A stretch of DNA of 64,000 nt from Pseudomonadota bacterium (GTDB taxonomy: Bacteria; Pseudomonadota; Gammaproteobacteria; Pseudomonadales; JADFDG01). Both the position numbers and the translations under genes were made by a program. The stretch spans positions 163,557 through 227,556 of the forward strand of contig JBMOOO010000011.1 in NCBI GenBank assembly GCA_049324475.1. Direction: 5' to 3'. Below are positions 1,588 to 29,567 of this stretch, piece after piece (position 1 is the stretch's first letter; the number at the start of each line of letters is the position of its first letter). The notes beneath the pieces were generated by a model. It did no database searches. It was not told where the DNA came from and saw only the letters and a list, made by a program, of their open reading frames with translations.

Positions 1588-1601
1588 GCGGAGGACGAGA
1601 C

Positions 1602-3197: not shown

Positions 3198-3217
3198 CGG
3201 GGTGCTGGGCCTCAGCG

Positions 3218-3245
3218 ACGGCGCCTTCGGGCGCCGTTTCTGTTT
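3218..3245 (+). terminator. Rho-independent terminator after the FecR-domain gene
   Basis: Stem ACGGCGCC (3218-3225), loop TTCG, stem GGCGCCGT (3230-3237), followed by TTCTGTTT. Confidence 0.7.
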
Positions 3246-3322
3246 CCGGGGCGAACCATATCGGTGCGATCCGGGGTGCAGCGCCCGATATTGGGGCGAT
3301 TCCGGGCGATCGCATCGCCTAA

Positions 3323-3790
<468 letters not shown>

Positions 3791-3800
3791 GGAGCCCTCC

Positions 3801-11919: not shown

Positions 11920-12044
11920 CGTGATTCTCTCGGGAGGGCTGCGGGCGGCCGCCAACGGCGGACCGAGCCCGGATCATAGCACGCGGGATTCGCGTCCGAG
12001 CCGCCCCCTCCCTGTGGCGGGGCGACGTAACGTGTTGTTACACG

Positions 12045-12605
12045 TCAGGATTTTCCGTCACGCGGTTTCGTATCCCCGGTGCGCTGCTCGGCGTCGCGGC
12101 GCTCTGCCGACAGGCGGCGTGCCGATGGCGGATTGCGACCCATGATCACCTTCCAGAACGGGATGCGGCGGGTCAGCGAAGCCATCTCGTCAACCCGGTC
12201 GGACAGCCCGGACAGCTTGTCCACGGTATCGCGTACGCCGGCCAGTTCGTCCACGTCCTCGGCGATGCGGAACACCACCATGTAGAACTCCAGCAGGCCG
12301 CGCAGCAGCGAGGCCAGCACCACGAACGTGAGCGGGCCGGCGAAGAACAGGTAGAAGAACCCGCGCCAGTGGCTGCCGGAGGCGAAGGCCTCCACGATCA
12401 GGTAGATGATGCCCACGCCCATGGCGAACAGCAGCATGCCGTACAGGATCGGCAGCATCTGGATGATCATGTATTTCTCGAACGAGAAATCGAACAGCGC
12501 CTTCCAGTACTGGATCACCCACAGCCAGGCGCGGCGGGCGCGCTCCTGCAGGCTGCGTTGCCCTGCCGGCGGTTCCGGGTTCTTCATGTCGTCGTTCGTG
12601 CTCAT
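12045..12605 (-). CDS. DUF4282-type small membrane protein
   Basis: 186 aa. Motif LFDFSFEKYMIIQMLPILYG is followed by two or three TM helices. It lies 4 nt downstream of the DUF2804 gene on the same strand. Confidence 0.55.
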   Translation of the reverse strand: MSTNDDMKNPEPPAGQRSLQERARRAWLWVIQYWKALFDFSFEKYMIIQMLPILYGMLLFAMGVGIIYLIVEAFASGSHWRGFFYLFFAGPLTFVVLASLLRGLLEFYMVVFRIAEDVDELAGVRDTVDKLSGLSDRVDEMASLTRRIPFWKVIMGRNPPSARRLSAERRDAEQRTGDTKPRDGKS

Positions 12606-12609
12606 GCGA

Positions 12610-13653
12610 TCACCATTTGGCGTACTGCTCCTCGACGAATCCGGGCAGGCCGGCGACGGCCAGGGTCTCGTTGCCGACCATGACGGTACCGTGGAAATGC
12701 CCGAAGACCTGTTTGAAATCGGTGGCGAACAGCAGCAGGTTCATCTTCTCGGTGTGGGCGCCGGCCGGCCGGAAGGCCAGGTCGACCGAACCGTCGGCGG
12801 TACGTACCTGCCAGGGGCGGCCGACCGGGTCGCGGGCATCGTAGTCGAACCGGGTCAGGCCGGTGGCCACCCGTTGTCCGTCAAGCCAGAGGCAGTTCTC
12901 GCTGAAACTGGTCTCGTTGACCCCGCAGGACAAATTCAGGCCCAGCAGCCGTTCCCGGCCGCCGGTGCGAACCCGTCCTGACAGGCAGGCCCAGTTCCAG
13001 AAGGTTTCCCGGCGCATGTAGCCGGCCGAGAAGTCGTGGTGGCCGCAGGCGCCCAGTCCGGCCAGATCGTAGTCCTGGCCGGCGGCGGAGATGCGGCCGC
13101 TGACCGGCAGGCCTGCGACCTTGTTGGCGAAGGTCCAGCCGTTGATGCCGGTGCGGGTGCAGAGGGGCAGGGACCGGTAGGAGGCCGGTTCCGGCAGCTC
13201 GGCATCGATCGTCATGGGTGTACGGCCATGCAGCCGCACCTGCAGTGTTTTCAGCAGGCTGCCGTCGGCATGGCGGCGATAGCCGAGCCGGATGCCGGCC
13301 CCGGAGGCGGCCAGCCGGCTTTCTCCCTCGACCGGGGAGCGGCTCATGGCCAGGCCGCGGCCCAGCGGCAGGCGCAGGGTGCGCTCGGTCAGGGTGTTGG
13401 TGGCCAGGTCATGCACGTACACGAAGGCCAGCCCGACATAGCCGGTATGGGCCAGCGCGCAGCCGGCCAGCACGCGGTCGGCCAGCACACCGAAGTACTG
13501 GAACTGCTTGTAGTGAAGGTGCCGGGCCAGTGCGGACTGCGGGCGGCCCAGGGGGGTGCGGTAGTCGAAGTCGCGGCCATTGATGTCGGCCGGAGGACGC
13601 TCGAACAGGCCCAGGCGGACCTGGCCATCGGGGGTGATCAGGGTATCGGTCAT
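12610..13653 (-). CDS. DUF2804-family protein
   Basis: Start ATG 13653 (MTDTLITPDGQV...); the alternative is 13680. The remaining 5' part of the 873-aa ORF is antisense to the oxygenase gene and has no protein-like composition. Recognisable segments: HHDFSAGYMRRETFWNWA and LNLSCGVNETSFSENCLWLDG. Confidence 0.6.
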   Translation of the reverse strand: MTDTLITPDGQVRLGLFERPPADINGRDFDYRTPLGRPQSALARHLHYKQFQYFGVLADRVLAGCALAHTGYVGLAFVYVHDLATNTLTERTLRLPLGRGLAMSRSPVEGESRLAASGAGIRLGYRRHADGSLLKTLQVRLHGRTPMTIDAELPEPASYRSLPLCTRTGINGWTFANKVAGLPVSGRISAAGQDYDLAGLGACGHHDFSAGYMRRETFWNWACLSGRVRTGGRERLLGLNLSCGVNETSFSENCLWLDGQRVATGLTRFDYDARDPVGRPWQVRTADGSVDLAFRPAGAHTEKMNLLLFATDFKQVFGHFHGTVMVGNETLAVAGLPGFVEEQYAKW

Positions 13654-13797
13654 GCGCGGGGTTCCGGGGTGGAAACGCATGGTAAGCGCCGGTTGGCAGG
13701 GTGACCATCGGGTTCTATAGTCCGGACGGCAAAACCCGTCGGTTCGCGCAGCGCATGCCACGGGCCACCCGGAACACCACGCGCAGGGGACACGTCC

Positions 13798-15261
13798 ATG
13801 AACATCGCCCTGACCGGCCAGCGCCGCCTGACCCATGCCGATGTCGGCCTGCCTTCGCACACGCACCGCCGCGGCTTCGACGCCCTGGAAACCGAGCATG
13901 ACTACCGGGTGGAAACCGTGCAGGGCGGCCTGCCGGCGGATTTTGCCGGCACCCTCTTCCGCAACGGCCCGGGCCGCAACCGCATCGGTGGCCGCAAGTT
14001 CGGTCACTGGTTCGACGGCGACGGCATGCTGTCGCGCATTACGTTCCGCGACGGCGAAATCCATTACTGCAACCGCTATGTGCGCACGCCGAAATACATG
14101 GCCGAAACCGCGGCACAGAAAATCCTCTACCGGGGTTTCGGCACGCAGAAGCCGGGCGGTGTGCTGGCCAACATCGGCCGTCCGCCGGCCAACGTCGCCA
14201 ACACCAGCGTGGTGTATCACGCCGGGAAGCTGCTGACGCTGTGGGAAGGCGGGCATCCGTGGGAGATCGACCCGGCGACCATGAGCACGGTCGGGGAGTA
14301 CGACTACGACGGCGTCCTGAAATTCATGTGGCCGTTCAGCGCCCACGGCAAGCTGAACCCGGCCACCGGCGAGTACGTCAACTTCGGTGTGCAACCGGGC
14401 AAAACCTCGCGCATCAATGTGTACCGCATATCGCCGAAGGGGCAGGTGATCGCCACCGGGCACTTCCCGCTGAAGGCGCCGGTGTTCCTGCACGACTTTG
14501 CACTCACGGAAAACCACGCCGTGTTCTTCATCGGGCCGGTCGAGTTCCACCGCATGTGGCGCTTCCTGGGCGGTCTGGATTCGCTGGACCAGTGCATGGC
14601 ATTCAATCCGTCCCGCCCGTCGCGCGTGCTGGTGGTGGATCTGCGCACCATGAGCATGGTGGTCGACAGTGAAATCCCCGCCGGCGTGTTCATCCACTAC
14701 GGGAATTCGTTCGAGGAAAACGGAAAGATCGTCACGGAAGTGACCCGCTATCCGGATTTTGCGGTCGACAGTGCCCTGCGCGACGTATTCAACAGCGAGG
14801 TTCCCGAAGCCGGTGATTACTGGCGGTACACCATCGATCTGGCCAGCGGCAAGGTCGATGGAGCCCCGGTGCCGGGGCTGTTGCAGTGCGAGTTTCCGGT
14901 ATTCGATGCCCGGCTCGGCCTCAGACGTCACCGCTATACCTGGATGGCAACGATGGCCAACAACGGCACGCAGATTTTCTTCAATTCGCTGCAGAAGTAC
15001 GACGCCGTCACCGGCGATGTGCAGACCCACGACTTCGGGCCGGGCCGGTTTACCTCCGAGCCGCTGTTCATGCCACGCCACGAGACGTCCGGTGAAGACG
15101 AGGGCTATCTCGCCAGTGTCGTCTACGATTACCGCAAGGACCTCAGCGAAGTGGTCGTGCTCGACGCCGCCGACATCACGAAGACCGTGGCTGTCGCCAC
15201 CCTGAAGCACCATGTTCCGTTCGGATTCCACGGCTGTTACGTGCCGAAAACGTTTGCCTGA
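13798..15261 (+). CDS. Carotenoid/apocarotenoid (stilbene) cleavage oxygenase family protein
   Basis: FRNGPGRNRIGGRKFGHWFDGDGMLSRITFRDGEIHYCNRYVRTPKY. The four iron-ligand His contexts are present in order (FSAHGKLNP, FLHDFALTENH, FIHYGNSFEE, PFGFHGCYV). Confidence 0.85.
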   Translation: MNIALTGQRRLTHADVGLPSHTHRRGFDALETEHDYRVETVQGGLPADFAGTLFRNGPGRNRIGGRKFGHWFDGDGMLSRITFRDGEIHYCNRYVRTPKYMAETAAQKILYRGFGTQKPGGVLANIGRPPANVANTSVVYHAGKLLTLWEGGHPWEIDPATMSTVGEYDYDGVLKFMWPFSAHGKLNPATGEYVNFGVQPGKTSRINVYRISPKGQVIATGHFPLKAPVFLHDFALTENHAVFFIGPVEFHRMWRFLGGLDSLDQCMAFNPSRPSRVLVVDLRTMSMVVDSEIPAGVFIHYGNSFEENGKIVTEVTRYPDFAVDSALRDVFNSEVPEAGDYWRYTIDLASGKVDGAPVPGLLQCEFPVFDARLGLRRHRYTWMATMANNGTQIFFNSLQKYDAVTGDVQTHDFGPGRFTSEPLFMPRHETSGEDEGYLASVVYDYRKDLSEVVVLDAADITKTVAVATLKHHVPFGFHGCYVPKTFA

Positions 15262-15296
15262 TTGCAGTTTCCGGCCCCGCCGGCGAGGAGATATCG

Positions 15297-16886
15297 ATGC
15301 GTTACGATTACATCATCGTGGGTGCCGGTTCTGCCGGTTGCGTGCTGGCCAACCGCCTGACCGAAGATCCGGGAACCACGGTGCTGCTGCTGGAAGCCGG
15401 CATGAGCGACTGGCACCCGTTCATCCATATGCCGGCCGGTGTCGGCGAGCTGCTGAAGGGGAAACTGTTCAACTGGTACTTCGACACGGCACCGGAGAAG
15501 CACCTCGGTAACCGCCGGTTGTACTGGCCACGCGGCAAGGGTCTGGGCGGCTCGTCCAGCATGAACGGCATGGTGTATATCCGCGGCCACCGCAACGACT
15601 ACGAACACTGGGCCAACGATCTGGGTTGCACCGGCTGGTCGTATGCCGATGTGCTGCCGTACTTCAGGAAGAGCGAGAACTTCTTCGGCGGCGAGAACGA
15701 ATACCACGGCGCCGGTGGTCCGCTGGGCATCACCCAGGATCCCTCCGGCCACATGCTGTTCGGCGTGTTCAAGGACGCGGCGAAACAGGCCGGCTACAGC
15801 GAGACGAAGGACTTCAACGGCGCGCAGCAGGAGGGCTACGGCTCCTACCAGCTCACCATTGCCAATGGCGAGCGCCAGAGCACGGCAGTGACCTTCCTGA
15901 ATCCGGCGAAGTCGCGGCCCAACCTGACCGTGATCACGCGCGCACATGTGCGTTCCATCGATATCGACGGTGGTCGCGCCACCGGCGTCACTTTCCGGCA
16001 CGGTTTCGGATCGGAAACGGTGAAGGCCGTCAAGGAAGTCCTGCTGTGTGCCGGTGCCGTGCAGTCGCCGCAGGTGCTGATGCTGTCCGGTATCGGTGAT
16101 GGCGAGCAGCTGAAGCGTTTCGGCATTCCGGTGAAGCTGCACAAGCCGCAGGTGGGCCAGAACCTGCAGGATCACCTGGATGTCATGGTCCAGCAGAATT
16201 GCTCGCAGCCGGTCACGTTCTACGAGAACACCAAATTTCACCGCGTCATCATGACGCTCATCGAATACTACCGGACCCGTGGCGGCCTGGGCGCCACCAA
16301 TGCCCTGGAGGCGGGCGCCTTCGTGAAGACGGATCCGTCGCTGTCCATGCCGGATGTCCAGCTGCATTTCATCCCGGCCTTCATGCTGGATCACGCACGC
16401 GAGATCGGGCCGGGTCATGGCTACATGCTGCATGCCTGCCAGCTGCGTCCGCGCAGCCGCGGCTGGGTTGGCCTGGCGTCCGGCGACCCGTTCTCGGCGC
16501 CGGTGATCCAGCCGAATTACCTCTCCGATCCGTTCGATGTCGAGGTGCTGGTGAAGGCGGTGAAGATCGCGCGGAAGATCTTTGCACAGCCGGCTTTCGA
16601 CCCTTACCGCGGCCCGGAGCACATGCCGGGTCCTGCGGTGCAGACCGACGAACAGATCGTGGAGTGCGTACGCCAGAAAGCGGAGTCGATCTACCACCCG
16701 GTGGGCAGTTGCCGCATGGGCCCCGACGCCGATGCGGTAGTCGATCTCGATTGCCGCGTACGTGGCATCGGCGGCCTGCGTGTGGTCGATGCCTCGGTGA
16801 TGCCCGCGCTGATCGGCGGCAACACCAATGCCACCACCATCATGATTGCCGAGAAGATCGCCGACCGGATCCGCATGTCGGCCTGA
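15297..16886 (+). CDS. GMC-family FAD oxidoreductase (choline/alcohol dehydrogenase, AlkJ-like)
   Basis: FAD fingerprint YDYIIVGAGSAGCVLANRLTED, GMC signature GLGGSSSMNGMVYIRG, and C-terminal active-site region YHPVGSCRMG. Confidence 0.9.
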   Translation: MRYDYIIVGAGSAGCVLANRLTEDPGTTVLLLEAGMSDWHPFIHMPAGVGELLKGKLFNWYFDTAPEKHLGNRRLYWPRGKGLGGSSSMNGMVYIRGHRNDYEHWANDLGCTGWSYADVLPYFRKSENFFGGENEYHGAGGPLGITQDPSGHMLFGVFKDAAKQAGYSETKDFNGAQQEGYGSYQLTIANGERQSTAVTFLNPAKSRPNLTVITRAHVRSIDIDGGRATGVTFRHGFGSETVKAVKEVLLCAGAVQSPQVLMLSGIGDGEQLKRFGIPVKLHKPQVGQNLQDHLDVMVQQNCSQPVTFYENTKFHRVIMTLIEYYRTRGGLGATNALEAGAFVKTDPSLSMPDVQLHFIPAFMLDHAREIGPGHGYMLHACQLRPRSRGWVGLASGDPFSAPVIQPNYLSDPFDVEVLVKAVKIARKIFAQPAFDPYRGPEHMPGPAVQTDEQIVECVRQKAESIYHPVGSCRMGPDADAVVDLDCRVRGIGGLRVVDASVMPALIGGNTNATTIMIAEKIADRIRMSA

Positions 16887-16901: not shown

Positions 16902-17510
16902 TCATCCGCCGGCGCGCAGCTCGCGCCGTGCCCGCCAGAAGGCAAGGGCGCACAGGGTAACGGCGCTGCCGATCACCAGTGCCGTGGTGTACTTGAAATA
17001 CAGCCGCGGCATGATCGACCAGGACGTATCTTCCGGGTAGTTGCGCCAGTTGTTGTTGTCAAACAACAAGGGGTGGAAAACCTCGCGCCAGAATGTGGTG
17101 AAGAAGGGCAGCACGGCGATGCAGGCGGCCACGCCCAGCATGCTCCACAGGGCGACCCGCGCGCGGGTCGCCGCATCGGCGTGCAGGAAGACCAGGGCGC
17201 CCAGCATGGCCAGTACCAGCAGCCGGTCCAGCAGCGTGCGGACCTCGGCCAGATGCGCGCGCTCCTTGCGGGTCCAGTCGAAAGCGGACAGCGTGCCCCG
17301 GTGTTGCATGAAATGCCGCAGTTCGGTGATGCGCTCCTGCGCCGCGCCATCGCCGTTTGAAATGTCGTAGTCGGCGCAGCGTTCGTGCCACTGGCAACTG
17401 AGCGTGTGCCAGCCCGGCAGATAGGTGATGGCGGCAATCGGCAACCAGAGCGAGAAAATCAGCAGGCCGGTCAGGGCGAGCAGGGTGCGGGCCGGTTGTG
17501 CTGTGGACAT
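16902..17510 (-). CDS. DUF1461-family integral membrane protein (the family of Lit, lipoprotein intramolecular transacylase)
   Basis: 202 aa with 4 TM segments. The segments RKERAHLAEVRTLLD and FWREVFHPLLFDNNNWRNYPEDTSWSIMPRLYF match my recollection of the DUF1461 pattern (H..DV and F..FH..FF.N..W). It is the last gene of a 4-gene minus-strand string. Confidence 0.5.
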   Translation of the reverse strand: MSTAQPARTLLALTGLLIFSLWLPIAAITYLPGWHTLSCQWHERCADYDISNGDGAAQERITELRHFMQHRGTLSAFDWTRKERAHLAEVRTLLDRLLVLAMLGALVFLHADAATRARVALWSMLGVAACIAVLPFFTTFWREVFHPLLFDNNNWRNYPEDTSWSIMPRLYFKYTTALVIGSAVTLCALAFWRARRELRAGG

Positions 17511-17534
17511 GGAATACCTCGGAACAACATGGAT

Positions 17535-18182
17535 TCAGCCGGCGAGCGTACGTCCGGCCAGTATCTGCAGGCGGGCATACAGGCCGGTGGCCGTATCGCC
17601 GGTCAGGGCCGCTTCCGGAAACTGGCGCGGCGTGTCGGCGAAGCGCCGGTGCGCGGTCAGCGCGCTGCCGGCATCCAGCCTGGCCTGTTCCGGATCCGCG
17701 TTTGCGTCGGCGAGTATGGCGCGTGCCGCGTGAAAGAAGAATCTCTGGACGGGGTCCAGCAATCTTTCGTCCAGGCCGGTCAGCAGTGATGCCGCATCGT
17801 CGTAGCGGTCGACCTGCTGGTGACCGGTGATGAAGGCGGCATACTCCACGGCGATCTGCACGCCCGGATCGGTCACGCTCCGGCAGGCCAGGGCTGCCCG
17901 CCAGGCATCATGCGCCTGCGGCATCCGGCGACAGCGGGCCGATGCCCGTGCCAGCCCGCGCAGGGCATCGCGGCGATCCTGCAGGCGGCGCGCCTGCTCC
18001 GCGGCCATGACAAGCAGGTCGCACGCGGCTTCGGGATTGTTGTCGACGAGATGGTCTGCCTTGCGTCGCAGGTACTTTGCGGGATCGCGCACCGACGACA
18101 GCCGCAGGAAGAATTTCTCCCGGGCCGGAAGTGTCCACTCGCTGTTGCGGCACCAGTCCTTACGGACTTGCGACATAGCCAC
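17535..18182 (-). CDS. Hypothetical all-alpha cytoplasmic protein
   Basis: 215-aa ORF with no signal peptide and no motif I recognise. Its start overlaps the upstream lipoprotein gene by 23 nt, which argues for co-translation in an operon. Confidence 0.45.
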   Translation of the reverse strand: MAMSQVRKDWCRNSEWTLPAREKFFLRLSSVRDPAKYLRRKADHLVDNNPEAACDLLVMAAEQARRLQDRRDALRGLARASARCRRMPQAHDAWRAALACRSVTDPGVQIAVEYAAFITGHQQVDRYDDAASLLTGLDERLLDPVQRFFFHAARAILADANADPEQARLDAGSALTAHRRFADTPRQFPEAALTGDTATGLYARLQILAGRTLAG

Positions 18183-18792
18183 GTTCGCGCATGGCGGCGA
18201 TCAGCGCGCGTGCGTGGGAACGCGCGACCTGGGCCGGATCGTTGGCCTCACGGGTGCGGGTGAGCACGGTCCACAGCAGGGTGCGTGCCGGCAGCGCGTA
18301 GAGATTGGCTTCCAGGTCGACGTGATAGACGCTGCCACGCACGTCGCCGCCTGCCGGTGCGTTGAGCCGGATGTCGACGCCGCCGATCCGGCCGCTGGCG
18401 GGCGCGCTGTCGGCCGGCAGGTCCTGCGGTGACCAGGTCGGTTGCTGCACCAGACCCACCAGCTGTACATGCAGTGCGGCATCGGCACGGTCGGCATACG
18501 TGTGCATGCGTTCGCGGATGTCCTGCATGGAAAGGCCGTTCAGCGTCGGTACCAGGTCGCTGCTGGCAATGCCGGTGATGCCGGCAGCGGCGAGTTCGTG
18601 CACAAAGGCCTGCTCGTAGCGGCGGCGCAGGGCATCGTCGGTGCTGACGCCGACCACCACCAGGCTGCGCGCCGGCCTGGCAGCCGGCTGTTCGTCACTG
18701 CTGCGCAGCAATTCCGTGGTTGGTGCACAGGCGGCCAGCAGGGCGGCTGACATCAGCAGTACGAGGGCCGGCAAACGGTTAAGACATGACAT
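18160..18792 (-). CDS. Lipoprotein of unknown function
   Basis: Signal peptide with lipobox MSCLNRLPALVLLMSAALLAAC|APT. 210 aa. Confidence 0.6.
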   Translation of the reverse strand: MSCLNRLPALVLLMSAALLAACAPTTELLRSSDEQPAARPARSLVVVGVSTDDALRRRYEQAFVHELAAAGITGIASSDLVPTLNGLSMQDIRERMHTYADRADAALHVQLVGLVQQPTWSPQDLPADSAPASGRIGGVDIRLNAPAGGDVRGSVYHVDLEANLYALPARTLLWTVLTRTREANDPAQVARSHARALIAAMRERGYVASP

Positions 18793-18821
18793 GACGACGA
18801 CTCCTGTGACGGCCCGGCGAT

Positions 18822-20879
18822 TCAGCGGGGGAACTGCGGTGACTGCCAGACCGGCAGACCCGCGCGTGGCTGTACGCTGAAACGGAAGCGGAAATTCGGT
18901 GACGCCGGCGGATTGTTCCAGCGCAGCTCGTAGTTGGCCATGCCCGGGCCGGCATCGGCCAGCCAGCGGATCTGCAGATCATTGTGCCACTGGTCGTTGA
19001 GCGGGCGCCCGTTGCTGGCCAGCGGTACCCAGGTATCCGGCTCGCGCAGTGCCTCGATGCCGAGCAGCGGTTCGTGCAGGTCGAGACTGCCGGGTGCGAC
19101 ATCGCGATACACCACCGACCAGTACGGTTCCTGCGTGCCTGCGCCGGGGAAGAAAGACGGGCCGGAGACCAGTTCGCGTTTGCCCTGCGGCGTGACCGGT
19201 TGTGGCCAGTAGCTGCGCGTGGCAAGCCGGAACTGCCAGCGTGCGGGCAGATCGGCAACGGTCGTGTTGTGCGCCATGTCAGCGGCCAGCCGCGCGCCTT
19301 GCCGGGCCAGGAATTCCGTGGTGCCCGGGCCGTACAGGGTGTGGCCGCCTTCATAGAACTGCCGGCTGTATTCTTCCGGCGTGGTGGCATAGCCGAAGTA
19401 GCCATTGGCATGGCTGGCAACCACCACGCGTGCCGGGCTGCCGGAATCCTTGAAGGCGGCGGTCACGCGTTCGTTGATGCGTTGCCCGGCTTCCAGCGTG
19501 ATTTCCCAGGGCAGGTTCACCAGCGCGATTTCGTTGATGCGCAGTATCTGGATCGCGGCCAGATGCGGGAAGCGATCGGCCGGCATCACCAGCGGCTGCA
19601 CCTGCGAAAGCAGCCATTGTTTTTCGGCCTGGCAACCGTCGGCGAACCAGCGTCTCGGCCAGTCTTCCTTGAAATAGGGCAGGTAGCCCACCGGGAACAT
19701 CTCGTCGCCGTTGGCAGCGCCGACCGTGGCAGCGCCCATGATGGCGCGATCGCACAGCGGGAAGCGCACCTCGGATGGCGCCTTCAGCAGATCGATTTCC
19801 CGCATGCCGCCCTGGATGACGGCCTCGCTGCCCATTTGCCCGTCCAGGGCGTTGAACACCCGTGAAGCGATGCCGGCCAGTTCATTGCCGATGCGCCGTG
19901 TTTCGTCACTGCCACGCCAGCCGTCGCGCCAGCGCGGGTTGTTGTCACCGTGCGTTCCTTCGAAAACGGCGTGCGCCACCGGCCACGGCGGATCGAAGCG
20001 CGCACGGATGGCCCATTCGATTTCCTGCTCGAATGCCGCCCAGACATCGGCGTGCCAGCTGCCGCTGTCGGAGGGAATGCCGGTGCCGTGGATGGAGAAG
20101 GATGTGATGGCACCGGCCGGCAGCCAGCGGCCGTCGTCGGTGCGCAGATCAATGCGGATCAGTGTCAGTACCGGATTGACCGCTTCCAGCGAGCGGTCTT
20201 CGTCGGTGTGCTTGTCCAGCACGTTGTAGTTTGACGTCCAGGCCGGCAGTGAACGGTTGCGGGTCAGGCCCCAGACGCTGGTCTGGCCGATGCCGATGCG
20301 TGCCGTGCGCCGGTGCGTGCAGGCTTCGGTAACGGCATCGGCCATGCGGCCGGACAGGAACTCGAACAGCTGTGGATCGAAGCCGGGGCGGTTGGCGCCG
20401 AACGTGTTGTAGAAATCGCTTTCCAGGTACTGTCCGGGCCCGCTGTGGGTGTGCGTGGCCAGCACGGCCAGATTCTGTGCCGGCAGATCGGTGAGTGCGG
20501 CCACCCGTTCTGCGATACGGTGATGCAGGAGCAGCGAGCTGGCGCCGAGATCGGCCTGCAGGATGGCAACCGGTGCGCCCTGTGCCGGTTTCAGGCAGAA
20601 GGCGCGCGCGCGCAGCCGGGTACGGAAGCCGTCGGCGTCGCGTGCCATTGCCGAGTAGCCGAATTTCGGCAGCCCGATCGGTGGTGTGATGTCGCGTACG
20701 GCGACACCGGCCTCGAGACCGGGACGGTCCACGGCGGGCCGGGGTTCGACGCGGGTGATCTCCAGTTCGGTTTCCGGCAGCAGCCAGAACGGCCAGGTGG
20801 CGATGCCGCCGGCGACCAGGAACAGCACGGGCACGGCAATCAGCAGGATGAGCAGCCAGCGGCGCAGACGTCGGAACAT
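18822..20879 (-). CDS. Neutral/alkaline ceramidase-like hydrolase with an N-terminal membrane anchor
   Basis: Start ATG 20879 (MFRRLRRWLLILLIAVPVLFLVAG); the ORF extension to 21116 overlaps ybbP. Ceramidase N-domain pattern: AGVAVRDITPPIGLPKFGYS...RLRARAFCL...LATHTHSGPGQY. Confidence 0.7.
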   Translation of the reverse strand: MFRRLRRWLLILLIAVPVLFLVAGGIATWPFWLLPETELEITRVEPRPAVDRPGLEAGVAVRDITPPIGLPKFGYSAMARDADGFRTRLRARAFCLKPAQGAPVAILQADLGASSLLLHHRIAERVAALTDLPAQNLAVLATHTHSGPGQYLESDFYNTFGANRPGFDPQLFEFLSGRMADAVTEACTHRRTARIGIGQTSVWGLTRNRSLPAWTSNYNVLDKHTDEDRSLEAVNPVLTLIRIDLRTDDGRWLPAGAITSFSIHGTGIPSDSGSWHADVWAAFEQEIEWAIRARFDPPWPVAHAVFEGTHGDNNPRWRDGWRGSDETRRIGNELAGIASRVFNALDGQMGSEAVIQGGMREIDLLKAPSEVRFPLCDRAIMGAATVGAANGDEMFPVGYLPYFKEDWPRRWFADGCQAEKQWLLSQVQPLVMPADRFPHLAAIQILRINEIALVNLPWEITLEAGQRINERVTAAFKDSGSPARVVVASHANGYFGYATTPEEYSRQFYEGGHTLYGPGTTEFLARQGARLAADMAHNTTVADLPARWQFRLATRSYWPQPVTPQGKRELVSGPSFFPGAGTQEPYWSVVYRDVAPGSLDLHEPLLGIEALREPDTWVPLASNGRPLNDQWHNDLQIRWLADAGPGMANYELRWNNPPASPNFRFRFSVQPRAGLPVWQSPQFPR

Positions 20880-20985: not shown

Positions 20986-23511
20986 TCAGGTGCCGCGCAG
21001 TACCGGGCCGGCGCCGGAAGCCAGGCTGCGGCGTGCCGCCAGTGTGCCCAGCACCGCCAGCAGCAGGGCGCCGGCCAGGGGCAGGGCCAGCAGGGCCGGC
21101 AGGGGTGTCCAGGCAATTTCCATCACCTGCGTGTACAGCAGCCAGCGGGCGGTTTCCGCACCCAGCGCCGCCACCAGTCCGCTGCCGGCGCCCAGCAGCG
21201 CGAATTCGGCGGCCAGTGTCTGCCGCAGCAGGCGTCCGCGTGCACCCAGCACCCGCAGCAGGGCGGCTTCCGTCAAGCGTTCATCAAGCGTGGCGACCAC
21301 CGAGGCCGCCAGCAGCAGCGAGGCGGCACCGAGCAGCAGCACGGCGATGAATTCGATGCCGGCCGCCAGCCCGGACAGGAATTCCCCCAGACGTGCCAGC
21401 AGCGGTCCGACCTCCAGCACTGACAGTGCGGGGAATTCGGCACGCAGTTGCCGGACCAGCATGCGCGGCTGTTCGCTGCGGAAACTGGACAACCAGGTGT
21501 AGGGCGCATCGCGCAGTGTGCCCGGCGACAGCACCATGAAGAAGTTCGGCCGGAAACTGTCCCACTCGACGCGCCGGAATCCGGTCACGGTGGCGGTGAT
21601 CTCCTCGCCGGCGACCAGGAAGGTCAGGCGTTCGCCGATACGCAGGTCCATGTCGCGCGCCAGCTTTTCTTCCACCGACACCAGATTCGGCGCAGCGTCG
21701 GCAGCAAAGCCCCGGCCTTCGGTGACCGTGCCGGCATCGGTGGCTGCGCTGGTCAGGATCAGGTCGCGGTCCAGTGAGCGGCCGGTGTCGGATGCCGGAT
21801 CGACGCGCCCGGCCAGCGGGGTGTCACCGATGCGTATCAGACGCCCGGGCGTTACCGGATACAGCGTCGGCAGGGCAACGCCGTGTCGGGTGAGTGACGC
21901 CAGGAAGCTGTCGCGCTCGTGCGGCAGCAGGTTCATGGCGAACAGGTTCGGCGCATCGGCCGGCAGCTGTTTCTGCCAGCTGGCGAACAGGTCGTTGCGC
22001 AGCAGCGTGGCCAGGGCCAGGGTGGTGAAGATCAGCGCGAAGGCCACCAGCTGGGCGCCGGAACGCAACGGTACATGCGCAAGACGGTCGGCTGCCAGCC
22101 GCACCGGAAGTGCCAGCCGGCCGCGCCGGCGTGCCAGGGCACGCAGCGCTGCCGCGGCCAGCGGTATGCCGACCGCGATCAGGACCGCCACGCCGGCCAG
22201 CAGTGCCAGTGCCAGCGCCGGATCGCCGGACAGGATCACCAGCAACAGGGCCAGCAGACCCAGGCCCAGTGCGTAATGGCGGACGATGCGGGCCGACGGT
22301 GGCTCCAGATCGCGCCGCAGCACGCGCAGCGGTGATACGTCGGTCAGGCGTGCCAGCGGCGGCAGCAGGAAGGCCGGCAGGGCGATGAAGGCGCAGGCGA
22401 AGCCCGCGGCCGCTGCGCGCCAGCCTGCAGGCGGCAGCGCGACCGGCAGCAGATCGCCGAGCAGTCCGGTCAGCAGATGCTGGGCAACGTAGCCGAGCAG
22501 GGAGCCGATGCTGCCGGTGACCAGCGCGATGCTGATGACCTCGATCGCCAGCACCCGCCGCACGGCGCGCTGCGGCAGGCCGAGTGTGCGCAGCAGCGCC
22601 ACGGTATCGAACAGCCGGCGTGCCTGGCGGTCTGCCACCAGCGCGAGTGTGGCGCCGCACAGCAGAACGCCCAGCACGGAAGCCAGCGCCAGGAACTGCA
22701 TGGCGCGGCTCAGTGCGCTGGCTGTGCGCTGGTTGCCGCCCTGTACGTCCCGGAGCTCTTCGTCGGGCGCCAGCCGCACCGCCAGCGCGGCGCGCAGGGC
22801 TGCGATGGCGCTGTCGCTGCCGGCAAACATGACGCGATGGCGCACGCGGCTGCCCGGCTGTATCACGCCGGCAGCATCGAGGTCGTCGCGATGCATCAGC
22901 ACGCGGGGCGACAGTGCGGAGAAGTTGCCGGCGCGGTCCGGTTCCGTGATCACCAGTGCGGTTACCCGCAGCGGCTGTTCGCCGACCAGCACAACGGCGC
23001 CGGTCGTGATCGCCAGTTCTTCTGCGACCTGCGGCTCGATCCAGATTTCACCGGCGGCCGGGCCTGCGGCCACGCGCACGCTAGCGCCGTCGCGGATCTG
23101 CAGTTGCCCGCGCAGCGGGTAGCCGCTGTCGACGGCACGCACCGACACCAGCAGTACGTCGGGTGCGTCGCCGGATGCCGTTGCCGGAGGGAGTGCCGGT
23201 CCGCTGGCTGCCGGGGGCAGGGCGAGCATGGTGCTGAAATCAACGGCGTTGACGCTGACGGCACCGTACTGCCGCGCCAGTGCCGCAACATCCGCCGATG
23301 CCGGCCGGCTGCCGGCCAGCACAAGATCGGCGCCGAGCAGTTCTGCTGCCTTGCGCACCAGTCCGCGTTCCAGGCGGTCGCCGATGGCGGCAATCAGTGT
23401 GGTGATCGCCACGGCCAGCACACCGGCGGCCACGATCAGCCAGAGATCGCCGGCGCGCCATTGCCGGCTTGCCAGCCGGAACGCCAGCGTCAGTTCGTTC
23501 AGCGCGATCAC
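20986..23511 (-). CDS. ybbP: ABC transporter permease, FtsX-type double module (YbbP-like)
   Basis: 841 aa with two 4-TM FtsX-like modules separated by large periplasmic loops. Its start overlaps the ybbA stop (23508-23511). The tesA/ybbA/ybbP synteny matches E. coli. Confidence 0.8.
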   Translation of the reverse strand: MIALNELTLAFRLASRQWRAGDLWLIVAAGVLAVAITTLIAAIGDRLERGLVRKAAELLGADLVLAGSRPASADVAALARQYGAVSVNAVDFSTMLALPPAASGPALPPATASGDAPDVLLVSVRAVDSGYPLRGQLQIRDGASVRVAAGPAAGEIWIEPQVAEELAITTGAVVLVGEQPLRVTALVITEPDRAGNFSALSPRVLMHRDDLDAAGVIQPGSRVRHRVMFAGSDSAIAALRAALAVRLAPDEELRDVQGGNQRTASALSRAMQFLALASVLGVLLCGATLALVADRQARRLFDTVALLRTLGLPQRAVRRVLAIEVISIALVTGSIGSLLGYVAQHLLTGLLGDLLPVALPPAGWRAAAAGFACAFIALPAFLLPPLARLTDVSPLRVLRRDLEPPSARIVRHYALGLGLLALLLVILSGDPALALALLAGVAVLIAVGIPLAAAALRALARRRGRLALPVRLAADRLAHVPLRSGAQLVAFALIFTTLALATLLRNDLFASWQKQLPADAPNLFAMNLLPHERDSFLASLTRHGVALPTLYPVTPGRLIRIGDTPLAGRVDPASDTGRSLDRDLILTSAATDAGTVTEGRGFAADAAPNLVSVEEKLARDMDLRIGERLTFLVAGEEITATVTGFRRVEWDSFRPNFFMVLSPGTLRDAPYTWLSSFRSEQPRMLVRQLRAEFPALSVLEVGPLLARLGEFLSGLAAGIEFIAVLLLGAASLLLAASVVATLDERLTEAALLRVLGARGRLLRQTLAAEFALLGAGSGLVAALGAETARWLLYTQVMEIAWTPLPALLALPLAGALLLAVLGTLAARRSLASGAGPVLRGT

Positions 23512-24254
23512 GGCAGGCGTTCCGCGGGGCGGGAGTCATGTATCAGCCGCCCGGCTTCCAGATGCAGCTGCCGCGCGCAGCGCGCCGCCAGCGTCGTATC
23601 GTGCGTGACCAGGATCAGCGTGGTGCCGGCTTCACGGTTGCTGGCAAACAGCAGGTCGGCAATTTGCTGGCCGGTGCCGGTATCGAGGTTGCCGGTCGGT
23701 TCATCGGCGAACAGGATGGCCGGACGCACCGCGAAGGCGCGCGCGATCGCCACCCGTTGCTGTTCGCCGCCGGACAGCTGTCGCGGGTAATGGCCGGTGC
23801 GGTCGGCAAGACCGACCCGGTGCAGCCATTCGCGTGCCTGCGTCTCCGCATCGGCGTGACCGCCGATTTCCAGCGGCAGCATCACGTTCTCCAGCGCGGT
23901 CATGGCCGGCAGCAGCTGGAAGGACTGGAACACGAAGCCGACACGCCCGGCCCGCAGCGCGGCACGTGCATCCTCGTCGAGTCTGTCGATGCGTACGCCC
24001 GACAGCCAGGCCTCGCCGGCAGTGGGTGCATCCAGGCCTGCCAGCAGGGCCAGCAGGGTGGATTTGCCGGATCCGGAACGGCCGGTGACCGCGACCGATT
24101 CGCCGGCCGGGATGTGGAATGACACGTCGTCGAGAATTGCGAGGGCGCCGTCGCCGACGCGCTTGCCAAGCCCGATGGCCGACACTACGGTCGATGAAGC
24201 TGTCGACAGGGAGCCCGTGGTCGACCGGTCGTACCGTGCGGAGTCTGTGGTCAT
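23508..24254 (-). CDS. ybbA: ABC transporter ATP-binding protein (YbbA-like)
   Basis: Walker A GRSGSGKSTLL, signature LSGGEQQRVAIARA, Walker B ILFADEPTGNLD. The true start may be an internal GTG/TTG, because the ATG at 24254 interlocks with the tesA ATG. Confidence 0.85.
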   Translation of the reverse strand: MTTDSARYDRSTTGSLSTASSTVVSAIGLGKRVGDGALAILDDVSFHIPAGESVAVTGRSGSGKSTLLALLAGLDAPTAGEAWLSGVRIDRLDEDARAALRAGRVGFVFQSFQLLPAMTALENVMLPLEIGGHADAETQAREWLHRVGLADRTGHYPRQLSGGEQQRVAIARAFAVRPAILFADEPTGNLDTGTGQQIADLLFASNREAGTTLILVTHDTTLAARCARQLHLEAGRLIHDSRPAERLP

Positions 24255-24885
24255 GAGCCGTTTTCCTGTGCGCCTGTTGTTGCTGCTCGGCCTGCTGCTG
24301 GGCGCGGCAGGCTGGAGTTCCGCAGTATCCGGTGGTGTGGTGCTGGTCGTAGGCGACAGTATCAGTGCCGGTTACGGGGTACCACCGGCGAAAATCTGGG
24401 TGAATTCCCTGGCGGCAAAAGTGACCGCCGGCGGATATCCGTACACGGTGGTGAATGCATCGATCAGCGGCGATACCACAGCCGGCGGCGTTTCCCGCCT
24501 GCCGGCGTTGCTGCGTCAGCACAAGCCGGCGGTGGTCGTGCTCGAGCTGGGCGGCAACGACGGTCTGCGGGCGCTGCCGATGAAGGCGACGCGGAACAAC
24601 CTTTCCCAGATGGTGCGTCTGGCCCGCAAGAGCGGTGCCCGGGTGCTGCTGCTGGGCATGGATATCCCGCCCAATCTCGGCCAGAAATACGTTCAGGAAT
24701 TCCGCAGTCTGTATCCGCAGGTGGCGAAGGCCGAGGGTGCCCGCCTGGTGCCGGGCTTCATCGCCGACGTGGCCGTGCTGCCCGGCATGATGCAGGCCGA
24801 CGGCCTGCATCCGAACTCGCTCGCGCAGCCGAAGCTGGCCGACAAGGTGTGGGGCGAGCTGGAGCCGTTGCTGAAAGGGCAGTAA
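24253..24885 (+). CDS. tesA: Periplasmic SGNH arylesterase / acyl-CoA thioesterase I / lysophospholipase L1
   Basis: Signal peptide MSRFPVRLLLLLGLLLGAAG. SGNH blocks GDSISAGYG, NASISGDT, ELGGNDGLR and DGLHPN. The sequence is collinear with E. coli TesA. Confidence 0.9.
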   Translation: MSRFPVRLLLLLGLLLGAAGWSSAVSGGVVLVVGDSISAGYGVPPAKIWVNSLAAKVTAGGYPYTVVNASISGDTTAGGVSRLPALLRQHKPAVVVLELGGNDGLRALPMKATRNNLSQMVRLARKSGARVLLLGMDIPPNLGQKYVQEFRSLYPQVAKAEGARLVPGFIADVAVLPGMMQADGLHPNSLAQPKLADKVWGELEPLLKGQ

Positions 24886-24895
24886 CGGCTTCCGC

Positions 24896-27403
24896 TCAGG
24901 ACCCGAGCGCGCGCCGGAAACGTTCCTGCAGCGGGGTGCGCACGTCGGCCGTCACCGGCCCGGTCGACAGCCAGGCGTCTTCCAGTGCGCGTTTCGGATC
25001 GGCATTCCGGGGTTCCTGCGCGCTGCGATGACGCAACGCATCGTTCAGCCTGCCGATTTTTGCCTGCATGCGTGCCTGGGCAAGCTCCGGCGGTGACGGT
25101 ACATCGAGCAGGATTTCCAGTTCCAGGGTCAGCCGCGCCAGCGTATCGCCGTTGGTAGCAAGGGTGCGTGCATCCGGGCGGATACCGGTTGCCATGTGCT
25201 GCGCACGCTGGCGCAGGGACGTGACCAGAGGTGACTTGCCGGGCAGCGCTTCGATGCGGCCGGACACGGAGCCGTCCGCGGCCGTGCCGTCCAGCCAGGC
25301 GGACTCGGCCGTTGCCAGTGCCAGTGCGGCATCGATTTCCTCCTGCCGTGCTGCCCGCAGGGCCTGTGCCTGTGCTGCCCGGCGGGCGTCGTCATCGGCA
25401 CGCTTGCGTGCCGCTTCCGCGGCTTCCGCCTCACGGGCGGCGCGCTCCGCATCACGGGCAGCCCGTTCGGCATCGCGTGCCTGCTCGCGGCGGGCGAACA
25501 CCGCGTCGAGATGGCCGCGCAACTGTTGCCAGAGGGCACGATCGTCGCGCGGGTCGGTCCAGCCGATTTTCTTCCAGTCTTCCTGCAGGGCGCGTGCGGC
25601 GTTCAGGGCGGCCGGCAACGGTTCGTGGCTGATCAGGGCCTGTGCGCGTGCGACCAGGGCGCGTTTGGCGTCGGCATTGCGTCGCCGTTCGCCGTCCAGC
25701 AGTTTGCGCAGTTCGCCCAGCAGGGCATGGAAACGATCCTGGCCGGCCCGGGCTTCGGGCCAGCGCACCGGCTCCAGTGTTTTCCACTGTGCCCGCAGAT
25801 CACGCTCGCGATGTTCCAGCTTGCGCCAGCCGGCGGTGTCGGCCGGCGGTGCGGAGGTCAGTGTGGCCAGCTCGGCCGCCAGCGAATCGCACAGGGCGGC
25901 ACGCGCGGCCAGATTGTCGTCCTGTTTGCGGTGCTGGGCGTCGTACCAGGCTGCGCAGGGCGCGAAGGCCAGTTTTGCCGCGCGGTCGAAACGTGCACGC
26001 AATTCCGGATCGGCGTCCGGGTCGGCGGCACAGAGGGCATTCCAGCGTTCGCGCAGATCGCGCACTTCGGCTGCCCGGCCGGCAACCGCGTTGCTGTCGG
26101 TGAATGCATCCACGGCAGCCAGTGCCTCAATGCGCTCGCAAAGCTCGGTCTTGCGCGGTACCGAGGCGAATTCGTACCAGTCGTGAAGTTTTGCCAGGGC
26201 TTCCGTGAGCGGTGCCAGAGCGGCTTGTTCCTGTGCGGCTTCCCGTGCCGGCAGTTCCGCAATCCGCTTCTGCAGCCAGTGGTGCGTGCGTACGGCCACC
26301 CGCAACTGGCCTTCGTCGATCATGTGCCGCAGTGCACCGCGGCGCTTGCGCAGCTGCGCAAGCTGGTCGCGGACATCGGCCTGCAGTGCACGCCGTCTTT
26401 TCGCCAGTTGCTGCAGGGCTTCATCGATATCGGTCAGTGCCGGCGGTACCGCGCAGTGCTCGGGCCAATCGATACGTGCGCGCAGTTCTTCCAGGGTGTG
26501 CTGCCAGTCGTCGATGCGGTCGAGCCCGGCATCGGCATGCTCGCCCGCGTCGGCAAATACCGCGGCCGTTTCGGCACCGGCCCGGGCCAGCTCGGCCACA
26601 GCCGCCAGCCAGCGGTCGAGATGGCGTGCCGCCGCACGGAAACGGGCGGCCAGCGGCGCGTCGACGGCGGTGTGGACAGCAGCTTCGTCCCAGCGGGTCT
26701 GCTGGATGCTGCGCAGTGCGGCCACGGCGCTGACCGACGTGGACAGGTCCTCGCGTGCCAGTTGTCCGACGGTGGCTTCCAGTTCGCCGCAGGCGGCAAT
26801 CAGTTCCTGTTTTGCGGTGATGGCGTGTGCGCGGCCGGCCAGTTCCGCCGCATGGCGGTTGATGGTGTCCCGGCACAGCGCGGCCTGCTCGGCAAAGCGT
26901 TCCTGCTGGTCCGCGGCGGCCGCAGACGAGATTTCACGCCAGTGGCTTTCCAGCGAATCGAGTTTGGCTTCGTACAGGGGTTCGATGCCGCTGCGGCCGG
27001 CATGGTGGGCAATGGCGTCCAGCAGGTGCCGGATACGCTGCTGCAGTTCCTGCGCCGCGTTTTCCTGCTCGCGCAGGGCCTTGAGCGTGTCACGCACATG
27101 GCGTTGCACGGCCTTGTCGTTGCTTTCCCGGCGCAGCCGTTCCAGGGCGGTGACATCCTGCAGTTTCTCCGCTGCGGCCAGGCGGACCCGCGCCGCCTTG
27201 TCGTGCAGGGCGGCCTCCAGCAGGGCAGCGGTGTCCGTGCTGCGAACGATCTCCGCATGACGGCTTTCGATGTCGGCCTGTTGCTGTGCCCGCCGTGCTT
27301 CGGTTTCCGGATCGGAAGCCGGTGCCGGTTTTTCCGGGGCAACCGGCTGCCCGGTGTCTTCGTTGCCGTTGCGGCGGAACAGGCGGGAGATGCGGTCGAT
27401 CAT
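24896..27403 (-). CDS. DUF349 repeat protein
   Basis: Start ATG 27403 (MIDRISRLFRRNG). 835 aa of helical repeats of the type W..L..RF..A....F.RR (for example EDWKKIGWTDPRDDRALWQQLRGHLDAVFARR). The start overlaps the upstream stop (ATGA at 27400-27403). Confidence 0.7.
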   Translation of the reverse strand: MIDRISRLFRRNGNEDTGQPVAPEKPAPASDPETEARRAQQQADIESRHAEIVRSTDTAALLEAALHDKAARVRLAAAEKLQDVTALERLRRESNDKAVQRHVRDTLKALREQENAAQELQQRIRHLLDAIAHHAGRSGIEPLYEAKLDSLESHWREISSAAAADQQERFAEQAALCRDTINRHAAELAGRAHAITAKQELIAACGELEATVGQLAREDLSTSVSAVAALRSIQQTRWDEAAVHTAVDAPLAARFRAAARHLDRWLAAVAELARAGAETAAVFADAGEHADAGLDRIDDWQHTLEELRARIDWPEHCAVPPALTDIDEALQQLAKRRRALQADVRDQLAQLRKRRGALRHMIDEGQLRVAVRTHHWLQKRIAELPAREAAQEQAALAPLTEALAKLHDWYEFASVPRKTELCERIEALAAVDAFTDSNAVAGRAAEVRDLRERWNALCAADPDADPELRARFDRAAKLAFAPCAAWYDAQHRKQDDNLAARAALCDSLAAELATLTSAPPADTAGWRKLEHRERDLRAQWKTLEPVRWPEARAGQDRFHALLGELRKLLDGERRRNADAKRALVARAQALISHEPLPAALNAARALQEDWKKIGWTDPRDDRALWQQLRGHLDAVFARREQARDAERAARDAERAAREAEAAEAARKRADDDARRAAQAQALRAARQEEIDAALALATAESAWLDGTAADGSVSGRIEALPGKSPLVTSLRQRAQHMATGIRPDARTLATNGDTLARLTLELEILLDVPSPPELAQARMQAKIGRLNDALRHRSAQEPRNADPKRALEDAWLSTGPVTADVRTPLQERFRRALGS

Positions 27404-28320
27404 GGCGATGCCCCGGCATGCGCCGGCGCGTGCGCGGCGAGGCGGGCGATCAGGGCATTCTTCTCCGTCCACAGATCGGCCAGCCAGCGCTGGAAGCGCT
27501 CGCGGTAGGCGGGATCGTTTTCGTAGTCGCCGCCGAGCAGGTCGCGCGGGATCGGCAATTCACGGATCATCACCCGCACTTTCTGCAGGCGGCCGGACAC
27601 CATGTCGATGAAGGTGGGGCGGCCCTGCGGATAGACGATGGTGACGTCAACGATCGATTGCAGGATGTCACCCATCGAGTTCAGCACGAAGGCGACGCCG
27701 CCGGCTTTCGGCTTGAGCAGATGCGGCCACGGCGATTGCTGGCTGTCGCGTTTGCTTTCGGTGAAACGGGTGCCTTCCACGAAATTCATCACCGACACCG
27801 GTACGTGCCGGAATTTCTCGCATGCGGCACGGGTTGTTTCCAGGTCCTTGCCCTTGAGTTCCGGATGCTTTTCCAGCACTTCCTTCGAATGCCGTTTCAT
27901 GAACGGGAAGTCCAGTGCCCACCAGGCCAGCCCCAGCACGGGCACCCAGATCAGCTCCTGTTTCAGGAAAAATTTCAGGAACGGAATGCGCTTGTTGAAG
28001 GTGCGCTGCAGTACCGGGATATCGACCCAGCTCTGATGGTTGCTCACCACCAGGTAATGGCCCTCGTAACGCAGGCCATCATCGCCTTCCACCTGCCAGT
28101 CGATGCGGGTCAGCAGCGAGAAAGTGAAGCCGTTGACCGCGATCCAGCTTTCCGCAATCAGTATCAGCGCGCGTGACAGCAGGGTGCGCACGGCGTGGAC
28201 CGGTATCAGGAATTTCAGCAGTGCCAGAGCGAACAACGGCAGGCAATGCGCCAGCGTGTTGGTAATGAGGATCGCGAAGGCGAGCGGAATGCGCACGAAG
28301 GCGGGCAGGAAGCTGAACAT
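27400..28320 (-). CDS. Lysophospholipid acyltransferase, YihG-like (PlsC superfamily)
   Basis: HX4D motif NHQSWVDIP. Long collinear matches to E. coli YihG as I recall it (KFFLKQELIWVPVLGLAWWALDFPFMKR, NFVEGTRFT, LLKPKAGG). Confidence 0.8.
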   Translation of the reverse strand: MFSFLPAFVRIPLAFAILITNTLAHCLPLFALALLKFLIPVHAVRTLLSRALILIAESWIAVNGFTFSLLTRIDWQVEGDDGLRYEGHYLVVSNHQSWVDIPVLQRTFNKRIPFLKFFLKQELIWVPVLGLAWWALDFPFMKRHSKEVLEKHPELKGKDLETTRAACEKFRHVPVSVMNFVEGTRFTESKRDSQQSPWPHLLKPKAGGVAFVLNSMGDILQSIVDVTIVYPQGRPTFIDMVSGRLQKVRVMIRELPIPRDLLGGDYENDPAYRERFQRWLADLWTEKNALIARLAAHAPAHAGASP

Positions 28321-29372: not shown

Positions 29373-29567
29373 GGCAGGGGATCGGGGTCGGGCGGCCGAC
29401 AGGATATCGACGCCGGCTTGCCAGCGGCAATGTTCTGCATCCGGTCTGCTGACGGCGGACAGGCCTGCTGGCGGGCCCGGTCAGGGATTTGAGCATCCCG
29501 GTCATGGGCCGGCCGGGGTGCGGTCCGTACATTGACGGCGTTTCCGTCCTGTACTCCGGAGTTGCCC

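Follow-up and report, generated by a model that had tools for sequence, protein, structure and literature searches.

Parts of the locus described here resemble several known systems. In Escherichia coli, YbbAP-TesA has been proposed to extract lipids (e.g., lysophospholipids) from the inner membrane for hydrolysis (PMC12646458). The transacylase Lit shifts the sn-2 acyl chain of S-diacylglyceryl-cysteine to the free alpha-amine (PMC8275575). Of the neutral ceramidases, that of Pseudomonas aeruginosa (PaCD, or CerN) is described as a secreted enzyme (PMC5150637), and the human enzyme (ASAH2) is a single-pass membrane protein (PMC10243590). We analysed a stretch of 64,000 nucleotides (hereafter, the window) from a Pseudomonadota bacterium of the Pseudomonadales (lineage JADFDG01; contig JBMOOO010000011.1, positions 163,557 to 227,556). 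The window encodes a predicted membrane-anchored amidase of the neutral ceramidase superfamily, followed by a lipoprotein, a small tetratricopeptide repeat (TPR)-like protein and a distant relative of Lit. These genes lie directly 3' of ybbA-, ybbP- and tesA-like genes. We report the families, predicted folds, catalytic residues and predicted topology of the products, and the conservation of the gene order. The conserved core of the cluster is the amidase-lipoprotein pair, to which the Lit-like gene is a clade-specific addition.

The four genes are present on the minus strand as open reading frames (ORFs) 20879-18822 (gene 1), 18792-18160 (gene 2), 18182-17535 (gene 3) and 17510-16902 (gene 4). 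They are separated by 29 nt, a 23-nt overlap (as annotated from GTG 18182) and 24 nt. Each ORF shows a positive codon-usage score and a high GC content at third codon positions in its own reading frame and in no other, comparable with nearby genes whose family is known. The ORF coordinates and this frame-specific coding signature confirm the four genes and the spacing that were given in the original prediction, which was made from the sequence alone. Homologues of gene 3 align from residue 7-8 and the database copy is 213 aa long; the start is most likely ATG 18176, rather than GTG 18182, in which case the overlap with gene 2 would be 17 nt.

Gene 1 (18822..20879, minus strand; 685 aa, with the start at 20879 in agreement with homologues) can be assigned, with good support, to the zinc amidohydrolases of the neutral ceramidase superfamily. 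The product matches Pfam Ceramidase_alk (PF04734) at 180.8 bits (cut-off 32.1), and this is the only Pfam match at E<=1. Residues 61-522 align to residues 11-473 of PaCD (2zws) with an E of 1.2e-27, and ASAH2 (4wgk) also aligns. The motifs DITPPIGLPKFGYS and THTHSGPG, which had been read as a ceramidase N-domain pattern, were found and are invariant among 16 homologues. In a MAFFT alignment of the 16 family members with PaCD, no sequence departs from H143, H145, R209, H264, E459, Y497 and Y509, which correspond to H97, H99, R160, H204, E411, Y448 and Y460 of PaCD, respectively. We take His97, His204, Glu411 and Tyr448 of PaCD to be the zinc ligands and His99, Arg160 and Tyr460 to be catalytic, roles that reportedly go back to Inoue et al. 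2009 and Airola et al. 2015. Ahead of the catalytic domain lies just one hydrophobic stretch (residues 9-27), at the place of the membrane anchor that had been proposed. As RRLRR precedes this stretch, we predict an N-in anchor in the inner membrane and a periplasmic catalytic domain. Thus, gene 1 resembles PaCD and ASAH2 in its catalytic domain and in the identity of the zinc-ligand and catalytic residues, and ASAH2 also in its N-terminal membrane anchor, unlike PaCD, which is secreted (PMC5150637). It differs from both enzymes in its C-terminal region (the last ~160 residues match no Pfam domain, and Pfam Ceramidase_alk_C was not detected), in the apparently variable serine of the amidase motif, and in having an obligate lipoprotein neighbour.

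Gene 4 (16902..17510, minus strand; 202 aa) encodes a four-helix membrane protein of the Lit (DUF1461) family. It scores above the cut-off for Pfam Lit (PF07314; 41.7 bits against 24), and a family profile built from 25 homologues matches Lit of Bacillus cereus (7b0o) with an E of 7.6e-7. The AlphaFold (AF2) model has a mean predicted local distance difference test score (pLDDT) of 95.9. In a comparison with the PDB it matches Lit chains alone, with template modelling (TM) scores of 0.72-0.82 and root-mean-square deviations of 2.9-4.3 A, all other structures having E > 1. The four hydrophobic segments are consistent with the topology of Lit. In Lit itself, His85 and His153 form the catalytic pair, Val89, Phe149, Phe157 and Trp162 are conserved, and Asp88, Lys90 and Asn159 play supporting roles (PMC8275575). 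Their counterparts in gene 4 are H86 and H146 (the histidine pair), V90 (Val89), F150 (Phe157), W155 (Trp162), E89 (Asp88), R91 (Lys90) and N152 (Asn159), all of them invariant in the 25 sequences; Phe149 of Lit was left unmapped. The assignment to the Lit family, with an intact catalytic histidine pair, is well supported by profile, fold and catalytic residues, and the earlier DUF1461 call is upheld.

Gene 4 shares with Lit of B. cereus and Enterococcus faecalis (7b0o; PMC8275575) the Pfam family, the four transmembrane helices, the extracytoplasmic cap, and the His-His pair with its surrounding conserved Phe, Trp, Asn and Val, and the fold comparison with this protein gives TM scores of 0.77-0.82. 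The two are only 12-15% identical in the structural alignment, and the match to TIGR01906 is 33.1 bits for a cut-off of 74.8. Further invariant residues mark the branch to which gene 4 belongs (W34, C45, H70, K82 and E83, with C39 nearly invariant). By these sequence comparisons, gene 4 appears to be a distant branch of the Lit family and not an orthologue of the characterised Firmicute Lit. Unlike Lit, it is encoded beside a predicted N-acyl amidase, and its host is a diderm gammaproteobacterium, in which lipoproteins are normally N-acylated by Lnt. A literature search found no papers mentioning DUF1461.

Gene 2 (18160..18792, minus strand; 210 aa) is a lipoprotein, as originally called, with a signal peptide and the lipobox LLAAC, the cysteine of which (Cys22) is invariant. 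No family match was found in Pfam or NCBIfam. The AF2 model (pLDDT 83.9) contains a conserved insertion of ~40 residues (115-155) that is modelled at low confidence. The best fold matches in the PDB are chains of PelC (5t0z, 9h80), the outer-membrane lipoprotein of the Pel exopolysaccharide exporter (Foldseek E 3.5e-7 and probability 1.00, with TM scores of only 0.43-0.63). Gene 2 is like PelC in being a lipoprotein with a possibly similar alpha/beta fold, and unlike it in sequence (7-16% identity and no sequence-profile match) and in carrying the insertion. No pel genes were found in the window or in the related loci. Paralogues of gene 2 occur elsewhere in Alcanivoracaceae (loci L075-L080 and L066, at about 500-3800; L072:16126-16824; L040:19600-20400; L060:13806-14513). 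Some stand divergently to a Hydrolase_4 (lysophospholipase-like) gene, others lie behind an acyl-CoA dehydrogenase gene, and these contexts offer no consistent clue.

To place the cluster in a wider context, species-representative genomes were scanned with the amidase profile. The scan yielded 80 loci, and together with other loci fetched, 83 were scored; the downstream lipoprotein was detectable only with a sequence profile. A lipoprotein gene lies directly 3' of the amidase gene in 52 of the 83 loci, which comprise the window's clade, loci named Alcanivoracaceae, Alcanivorax, Alloalcanivorax and Isoalcanivorax, and some unclassified metagenome-assembled genomes (MAGs). In 21 of these 52 pairs (the window's clade and part of the Alcanivoracaceae) ybbP is also encoded upstream, on the same strand and at a distance of at most 10 kb, with only 32-35% identity of YbbP to that of the window. 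A Lit-like gene is also present in five of the 52, all from the window's clade. The amidase gene stands alone in 28 of the 83 loci (Ketobacteraceae, Moraxellaceae, Leptospira, Pseudomonas and other or unclassified MAGs). Three loci could not be scored, as the downstream region is lost at a contig end.

The order amidase-lipoprotein-Lit was identified in L001, L003, L013, L014, L015, L092, L094, L095 and L096, with identities of 48-76%. On L095 and L096, both of them short contigs, only part of the order can be seen. All Lit-like homologues that have at least 52% identity and a readable context lie in such an amidase-lipoprotein cluster. Given this recurrence in some ten independent contigs whose proteins are 48-76% identical, the arrangement is not a product of chance.

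The position between the lipoprotein and the Lit-like gene is variable. In most relatives it is empty (7-27 nt), and gene 3 forms a clean extra segment of ~650 bp relative to L001, L003, L013 and L015. In L092, the deepest-branching relative, it holds a homologue of gene 3 (51% identity) with overlapping start and stop codons. In L094 it holds a short-chain dehydrogenase (SDR) gene (L094:7199-7963; adh_short, 159 bits); in E. coli, tesA shares one operon with the SDR gene ybbO (PMC12646458). Gene 3 itself (17535..18176, minus strand; 213 aa from ATG 18176, or 215 aa from GTG 18182) encodes a small soluble TPR-like protein. No Pfam family matched it and no hydrophobic segment was found in it. 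Its family comprises 226 cluster representatives of ~210 aa, and TPR profiles match 21 of 30 family members. The context of one homologue, P0206, is uninformative (a 2-kb contig). A spurious ORF is ruled out by the frame-specific coding signature and by the 226-representative family. Core membership of the cluster is likewise ruled out, as gene 3 is missing in most relatives and the SDR gene fills its place in L094. Gene 3 is an optional passenger of this position. Thus, of the four-gene operon that was originally predicted, the tight spacing and both enzyme family calls stand, and gene 3 as a conserved member does not.

Upstream of gene 1 the window encodes probable counterparts of YbbAP-TesA. 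The nearest, at a distance of 106 nt and in the same orientation as gene 1, is a ybbP-like gene for a type VII ABC permease (20986..23511, minus strand; Pfam FtsX and MacB_PCD). NCBIfam YbbP is its sole match in that database, over the full length, at 497.5 bits, which is below the equivalog cut-off of 999. It is overlapped by 4 nt by a ybbA-like ABC ATPase gene (23508..24254, minus strand; Pfam ABC_tran), for which YbbA is the best NCBIfam match (269 bits, below the cut-off of 336). Divergent from ybbA is a tesA-like gene for a periplasmic SGNH esterase/lysophospholipase (24256..24885, plus strand; Pfam Lipase_GDSL_2), with NCBIfam TesA as its sole match (178.9 bits, below the cut-off of 270). 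Beyond these genes lie a DUF349 gene (24896-~27400) and, with DUF349 downstream of it, a gene for a lysophosphatidic acid acyltransferase of the YihG family (27400..28320, minus strand; Pfam Acyltransferase), at 432.7 bits against LPAAT_acyl_YihG (cut-off 260). The best family matches agree with the ybbAP/tesA/YihG context named in the original prediction, YihG above its equivalog cut-off and the other three below theirs. The longest ybbA ORF begins 1 nt from the divergent tesA start. The transcription units of these genes must therefore overlap, or else a very short control region must serve both, as has been described for E. coli (PMC12646458).

The order acyltransferase-DUF349-tesA-ybbAP-amidase is also found in L001 and in Isoalcanivorax pacificus (L009). 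In the latter, extra DUF4442 and DUF924 genes lie between DUF349 and tesA, and the lipoprotein gene follows the amidase gene. The window thus matches E. coli in the divergent layout of tesA and ybbA-ybbP, with the three counterparts as best family matches, and shares the theme of amphiphile extraction from the inner membrane and periplasmic hydrolysis (PMC12646458). In E. coli, however, no amidase, lipoprotein or Lit-like gene follows ybbP, whereas the window and part of the Alcanivoracaceae encode directly 3' of ybbP a second, predicted periplasm-facing hydrolase with a different bond specificity. The paper on YbbAP-TesA does not mention a ceramidase (PMC12646458).

We tentatively propose that the locus encodes a periplasm-facing module for the editing of acyl lipids or lipoprotein anchors, appended to YbbAP-TesA, a reading that we hold to be plausible at somewhat less than an even chance. 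From the gene neighbourhood we infer what the substrate is, in which order the reactions run, what the lipoprotein does, and that the enzymes cooperate with each other and with YbbAP-TesA. At the periplasmic side of the inner membrane, the enzymes of the locus would edit acyl chains carried by amphiphiles. Gene 1, held by its one N-terminal helix, would cleave an amide-linked fatty acid from a lipid in the periplasm, taking the N-acyl chain off the anchor of a lipoprotein or lipopeptide, or off some other N-acyl aminolipid. The free-amine, ester-bearing species that the amidase reaction makes or consumes would then be acted on by the Lit-like enzyme. Lipoprotein or lipopeptide anchors may be the most economical substrate, because the chemistries of an amidase and of Lit meet there. 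Gene 2 most likely serves as a scaffold or an activator and not as an enzyme, and gene 3 is an optional passenger. With YbbAP-TesA and the amidase combined, both ester-linked and amide-linked acyl chains would be covered. A more specific version is very doubtful: that the amidase removes the N-acyl chain installed by Lnt from triacyl lipoproteins or leftover lipopeptide anchors, and that the Lit-like enzyme moves the sn-2 acyl chain to the freed amine, both linked to extraction by YbbAP and to the cleavage of ester bonds by TesA.

The module draws support from the family matches and intact catalytic positions of both enzymes, the fold of gene 4, the single N-terminal helix of gene 1, the short gaps between the four genes, in which no terminator-like site was found, the recurring order amidase-lipoprotein-Lit, the pair in 52 of 83 loci with ybbP upstream in 21, and the proposed lipid extraction by YbbAP-TesA (PMC12646458). 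Several observations weigh against it. In 31 of the 52 pairs no ybbP lies within 10 kb. In L003 (5316-7216) and L092 (1843-3193) unrelated genes of the CYTH, CHAD and, in part, His_Phos_1 families separate ybbP from the amidase gene, so the ybbP-amidase junction tolerates insertions. The 28 solitary amidase homologues do without the lipoprotein, and Alcanivoracaceae keep the amidase-lipoprotein pair without Lit. Linkage to Lit is restricted to the uncultured clade of the window (~10 distinct contigs), and more distant Lit-like genes (at most 45% identity) have neither amidase nor lipoprotein nearby in five genome contexts and ~60 metagenome loci. A scan for terminator-like or promoter-like sites between the four genes found none, the scan being weak in DNA of ~67% GC. 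Against the NCBIfam equivalogs, gene 1 reaches 109.2 bits for neutral ceramidase (cut-off 1200) and gene 4 reaches 14.1 bits for Lit (cut-off 400), so that "ceramidase" and "lyso-form lipoprotein synthase" denote enzyme classes here and not demonstrated activities. The amidase motif is said to be GDxSPN, with its serine, in Galadari et al. 2006; in this region the gene 1 family has TH[GA]DN[N/S/T/R]P, where the serine position is variable and the local alignment ambiguous. The single remodelling module of the original prediction is accordingly retained in its enzyme families and its context, and reduced in extent: the stable unit is amidase plus lipoprotein, the Lit-like gene having been added in one uncultured clade.

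It is unlikely that gene 1 is instead a genuine ceramidase for the nutritional breakdown of exogenous or endogenous sphingolipids, with the fatty acid passing to beta-oxidation and the Lit-like and ybbAP-tesA genes as unrelated neighbours. Such a role would fit the superfamily membership, the retention of all zinc-binding and catalytic positions, and the many family members named Alcanivorax, Ketobacter and Leptospira, which are lipid- or hydrocarbon-degrading lineages. The human neutral ceramidase, too, spans the membrane once (PMC10243590). However, the score against the neutral-ceramidase equivalog is far below its cut-off, Ceramidase_alk_C is undetected and the amidase-motif serine variable, genes for sphingolipid uptake or sphingosine catabolism are lacking at the locus, and the close, conserved association with a dedicated lipoprotein goes unexplained. 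Alternatively, the amidase-lipoprotein pair could process an N-acyl amino-acid lipid or biosurfactant of the producer itself (e.g., ornithine lipid, glycine lipid or glycine-glucolipid), with the Lit-like enzyme of this clade rearranging acyl chains on that lipid class and not on lipoproteins. The near-universal presence of the pair in the recovered loci of Alcanivoracaceae, a family known for glycine-containing glucolipids, is in keeping with this, as are the lipid-related flanking genes (YihG acyltransferase, fatty-acid desaturase and GMC oxidoreductase). We nevertheless regard it as quite unlikely, as no genes for aminolipid or biosurfactant synthesis were found near the cluster in the window, an action of Lit is known only for the S-diacylglyceryl-cysteine of lipoproteins (PMC8275575), and a link between Alcanivorax and ceramidase was not found in the literature search.

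The cluster might also be no functional unit at all, its adjacency being synteny inherited within one lineage and its genes independent. This would account for the linkage of Lit in a single clade, for the unrelated genes (TPR, SDR) taken up between the lipoprotein and Lit, and for those between ybbP and the amidase in some relatives. Yet order and tight spacing persist although the proteins have diverged down to 48-65% identity, and bacterial synteny rarely survives such divergence without selection. The overlaps of lipoprotein with gene 3 and of gene 3 with Lit in L092 also suggest translational coupling. We therefore consider independence of the genes improbable, and retain the periplasm-facing editing module as our tentative reading.

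The distant Lit-like genes form a subgroup (L004, L007, L098-L158) that is probably from Thermodesulfobacteriota and relatives and has conserved neighbours of its own. A protein of ~190 aa with a signal-peptide-like N-terminus and an HExxH motif is encoded convergently, ~600 bp 3' of the Lit-like gene, in 36 loci, and an NhaA antiporter gene lies upstream in 28. No Pfam family was found for the HExxH protein or for a third recurrent neighbour of ~160 aa, and these neighbours thus give no functional clue. A general association of Lit-like genes with the amidase is ruled out by these distant contexts, in which amidase and lipoprotein are lacking.

Downstream of the cluster, a GMC oxidoreductase gene (15297-16886, plus strand) runs towards the Lit-like gene, their stop codons being 15 nt apart. 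It is followed by genes for an RPE65-type carotenoid oxygenase (13798-15261, plus strand), DUF2804 (12610-~13650, minus strand), DUF4282 (12045-12605, minus strand) and a fatty-acid desaturase (10741-11955, minus strand). L001 shares this conserved block (10741-16886), as does L003 except for RPE65. Long antisense ORFs are frequent in this GC-rich window; a listed minus-strand ORF of 873 aa (12610-15231) is mostly antisense to the RPE65 gene, and only its 3' third is a real gene (DUF2804). On the other side, just beyond the YihG gene, are an AraC-family regulator with an Arabinose_bd domain (28332-29372, minus strand) and, divergent from it, a family III CoA-transferase (29532-30761, plus strand). 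SphR is also a member of the AraC family. Through this transcriptional regulator the expression of the P. aeruginosa ceramidase is controlled (PMC5150637). Rfam and tRNA scans detected no tRNA, rRNA or Rfam families across the 64-kb window.

The amidase and the Lit-like protein belong to known superfamilies, and neither appears to be an orthologue of a characterised enzyme. In the literature on DUF1461 and on Alcanivorax and ceramidase, we found no published description of a ceramidase-type amidase combined with a fixed lipoprotein, a diderm Lit relative and ybbAP-tesA. We know of no enzyme that removes the N-acyl chain from bacterial lipoproteins. The gene content of the locus appears solid, and the functional account is drawn from the neighbourhood. 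If the specific version of that account is true, N-deacylation followed by an acyl shift would constitute a two-enzyme route to lyso-form lipoproteins, or a stepwise clearance of anchors, in a Gram-negative bacterium. The locus thus provides candidate genes for the disposal or remodelling of lipoprotein anchors or amide-linked acyl lipids in Gram-negative bacteria, and for the natural substrate of YbbAP-TesA. As Alcanivoracaceae in culture (Alcanivorax, Alloalcanivorax and Isoalcanivorax) also carry the amidase-lipoprotein pair, its role is genetically testable. Should the enzymes act on ceramide-like or aminolipid substrates instead, a widespread branch of the ceramidase family that has gone unstudied would still gain a function.

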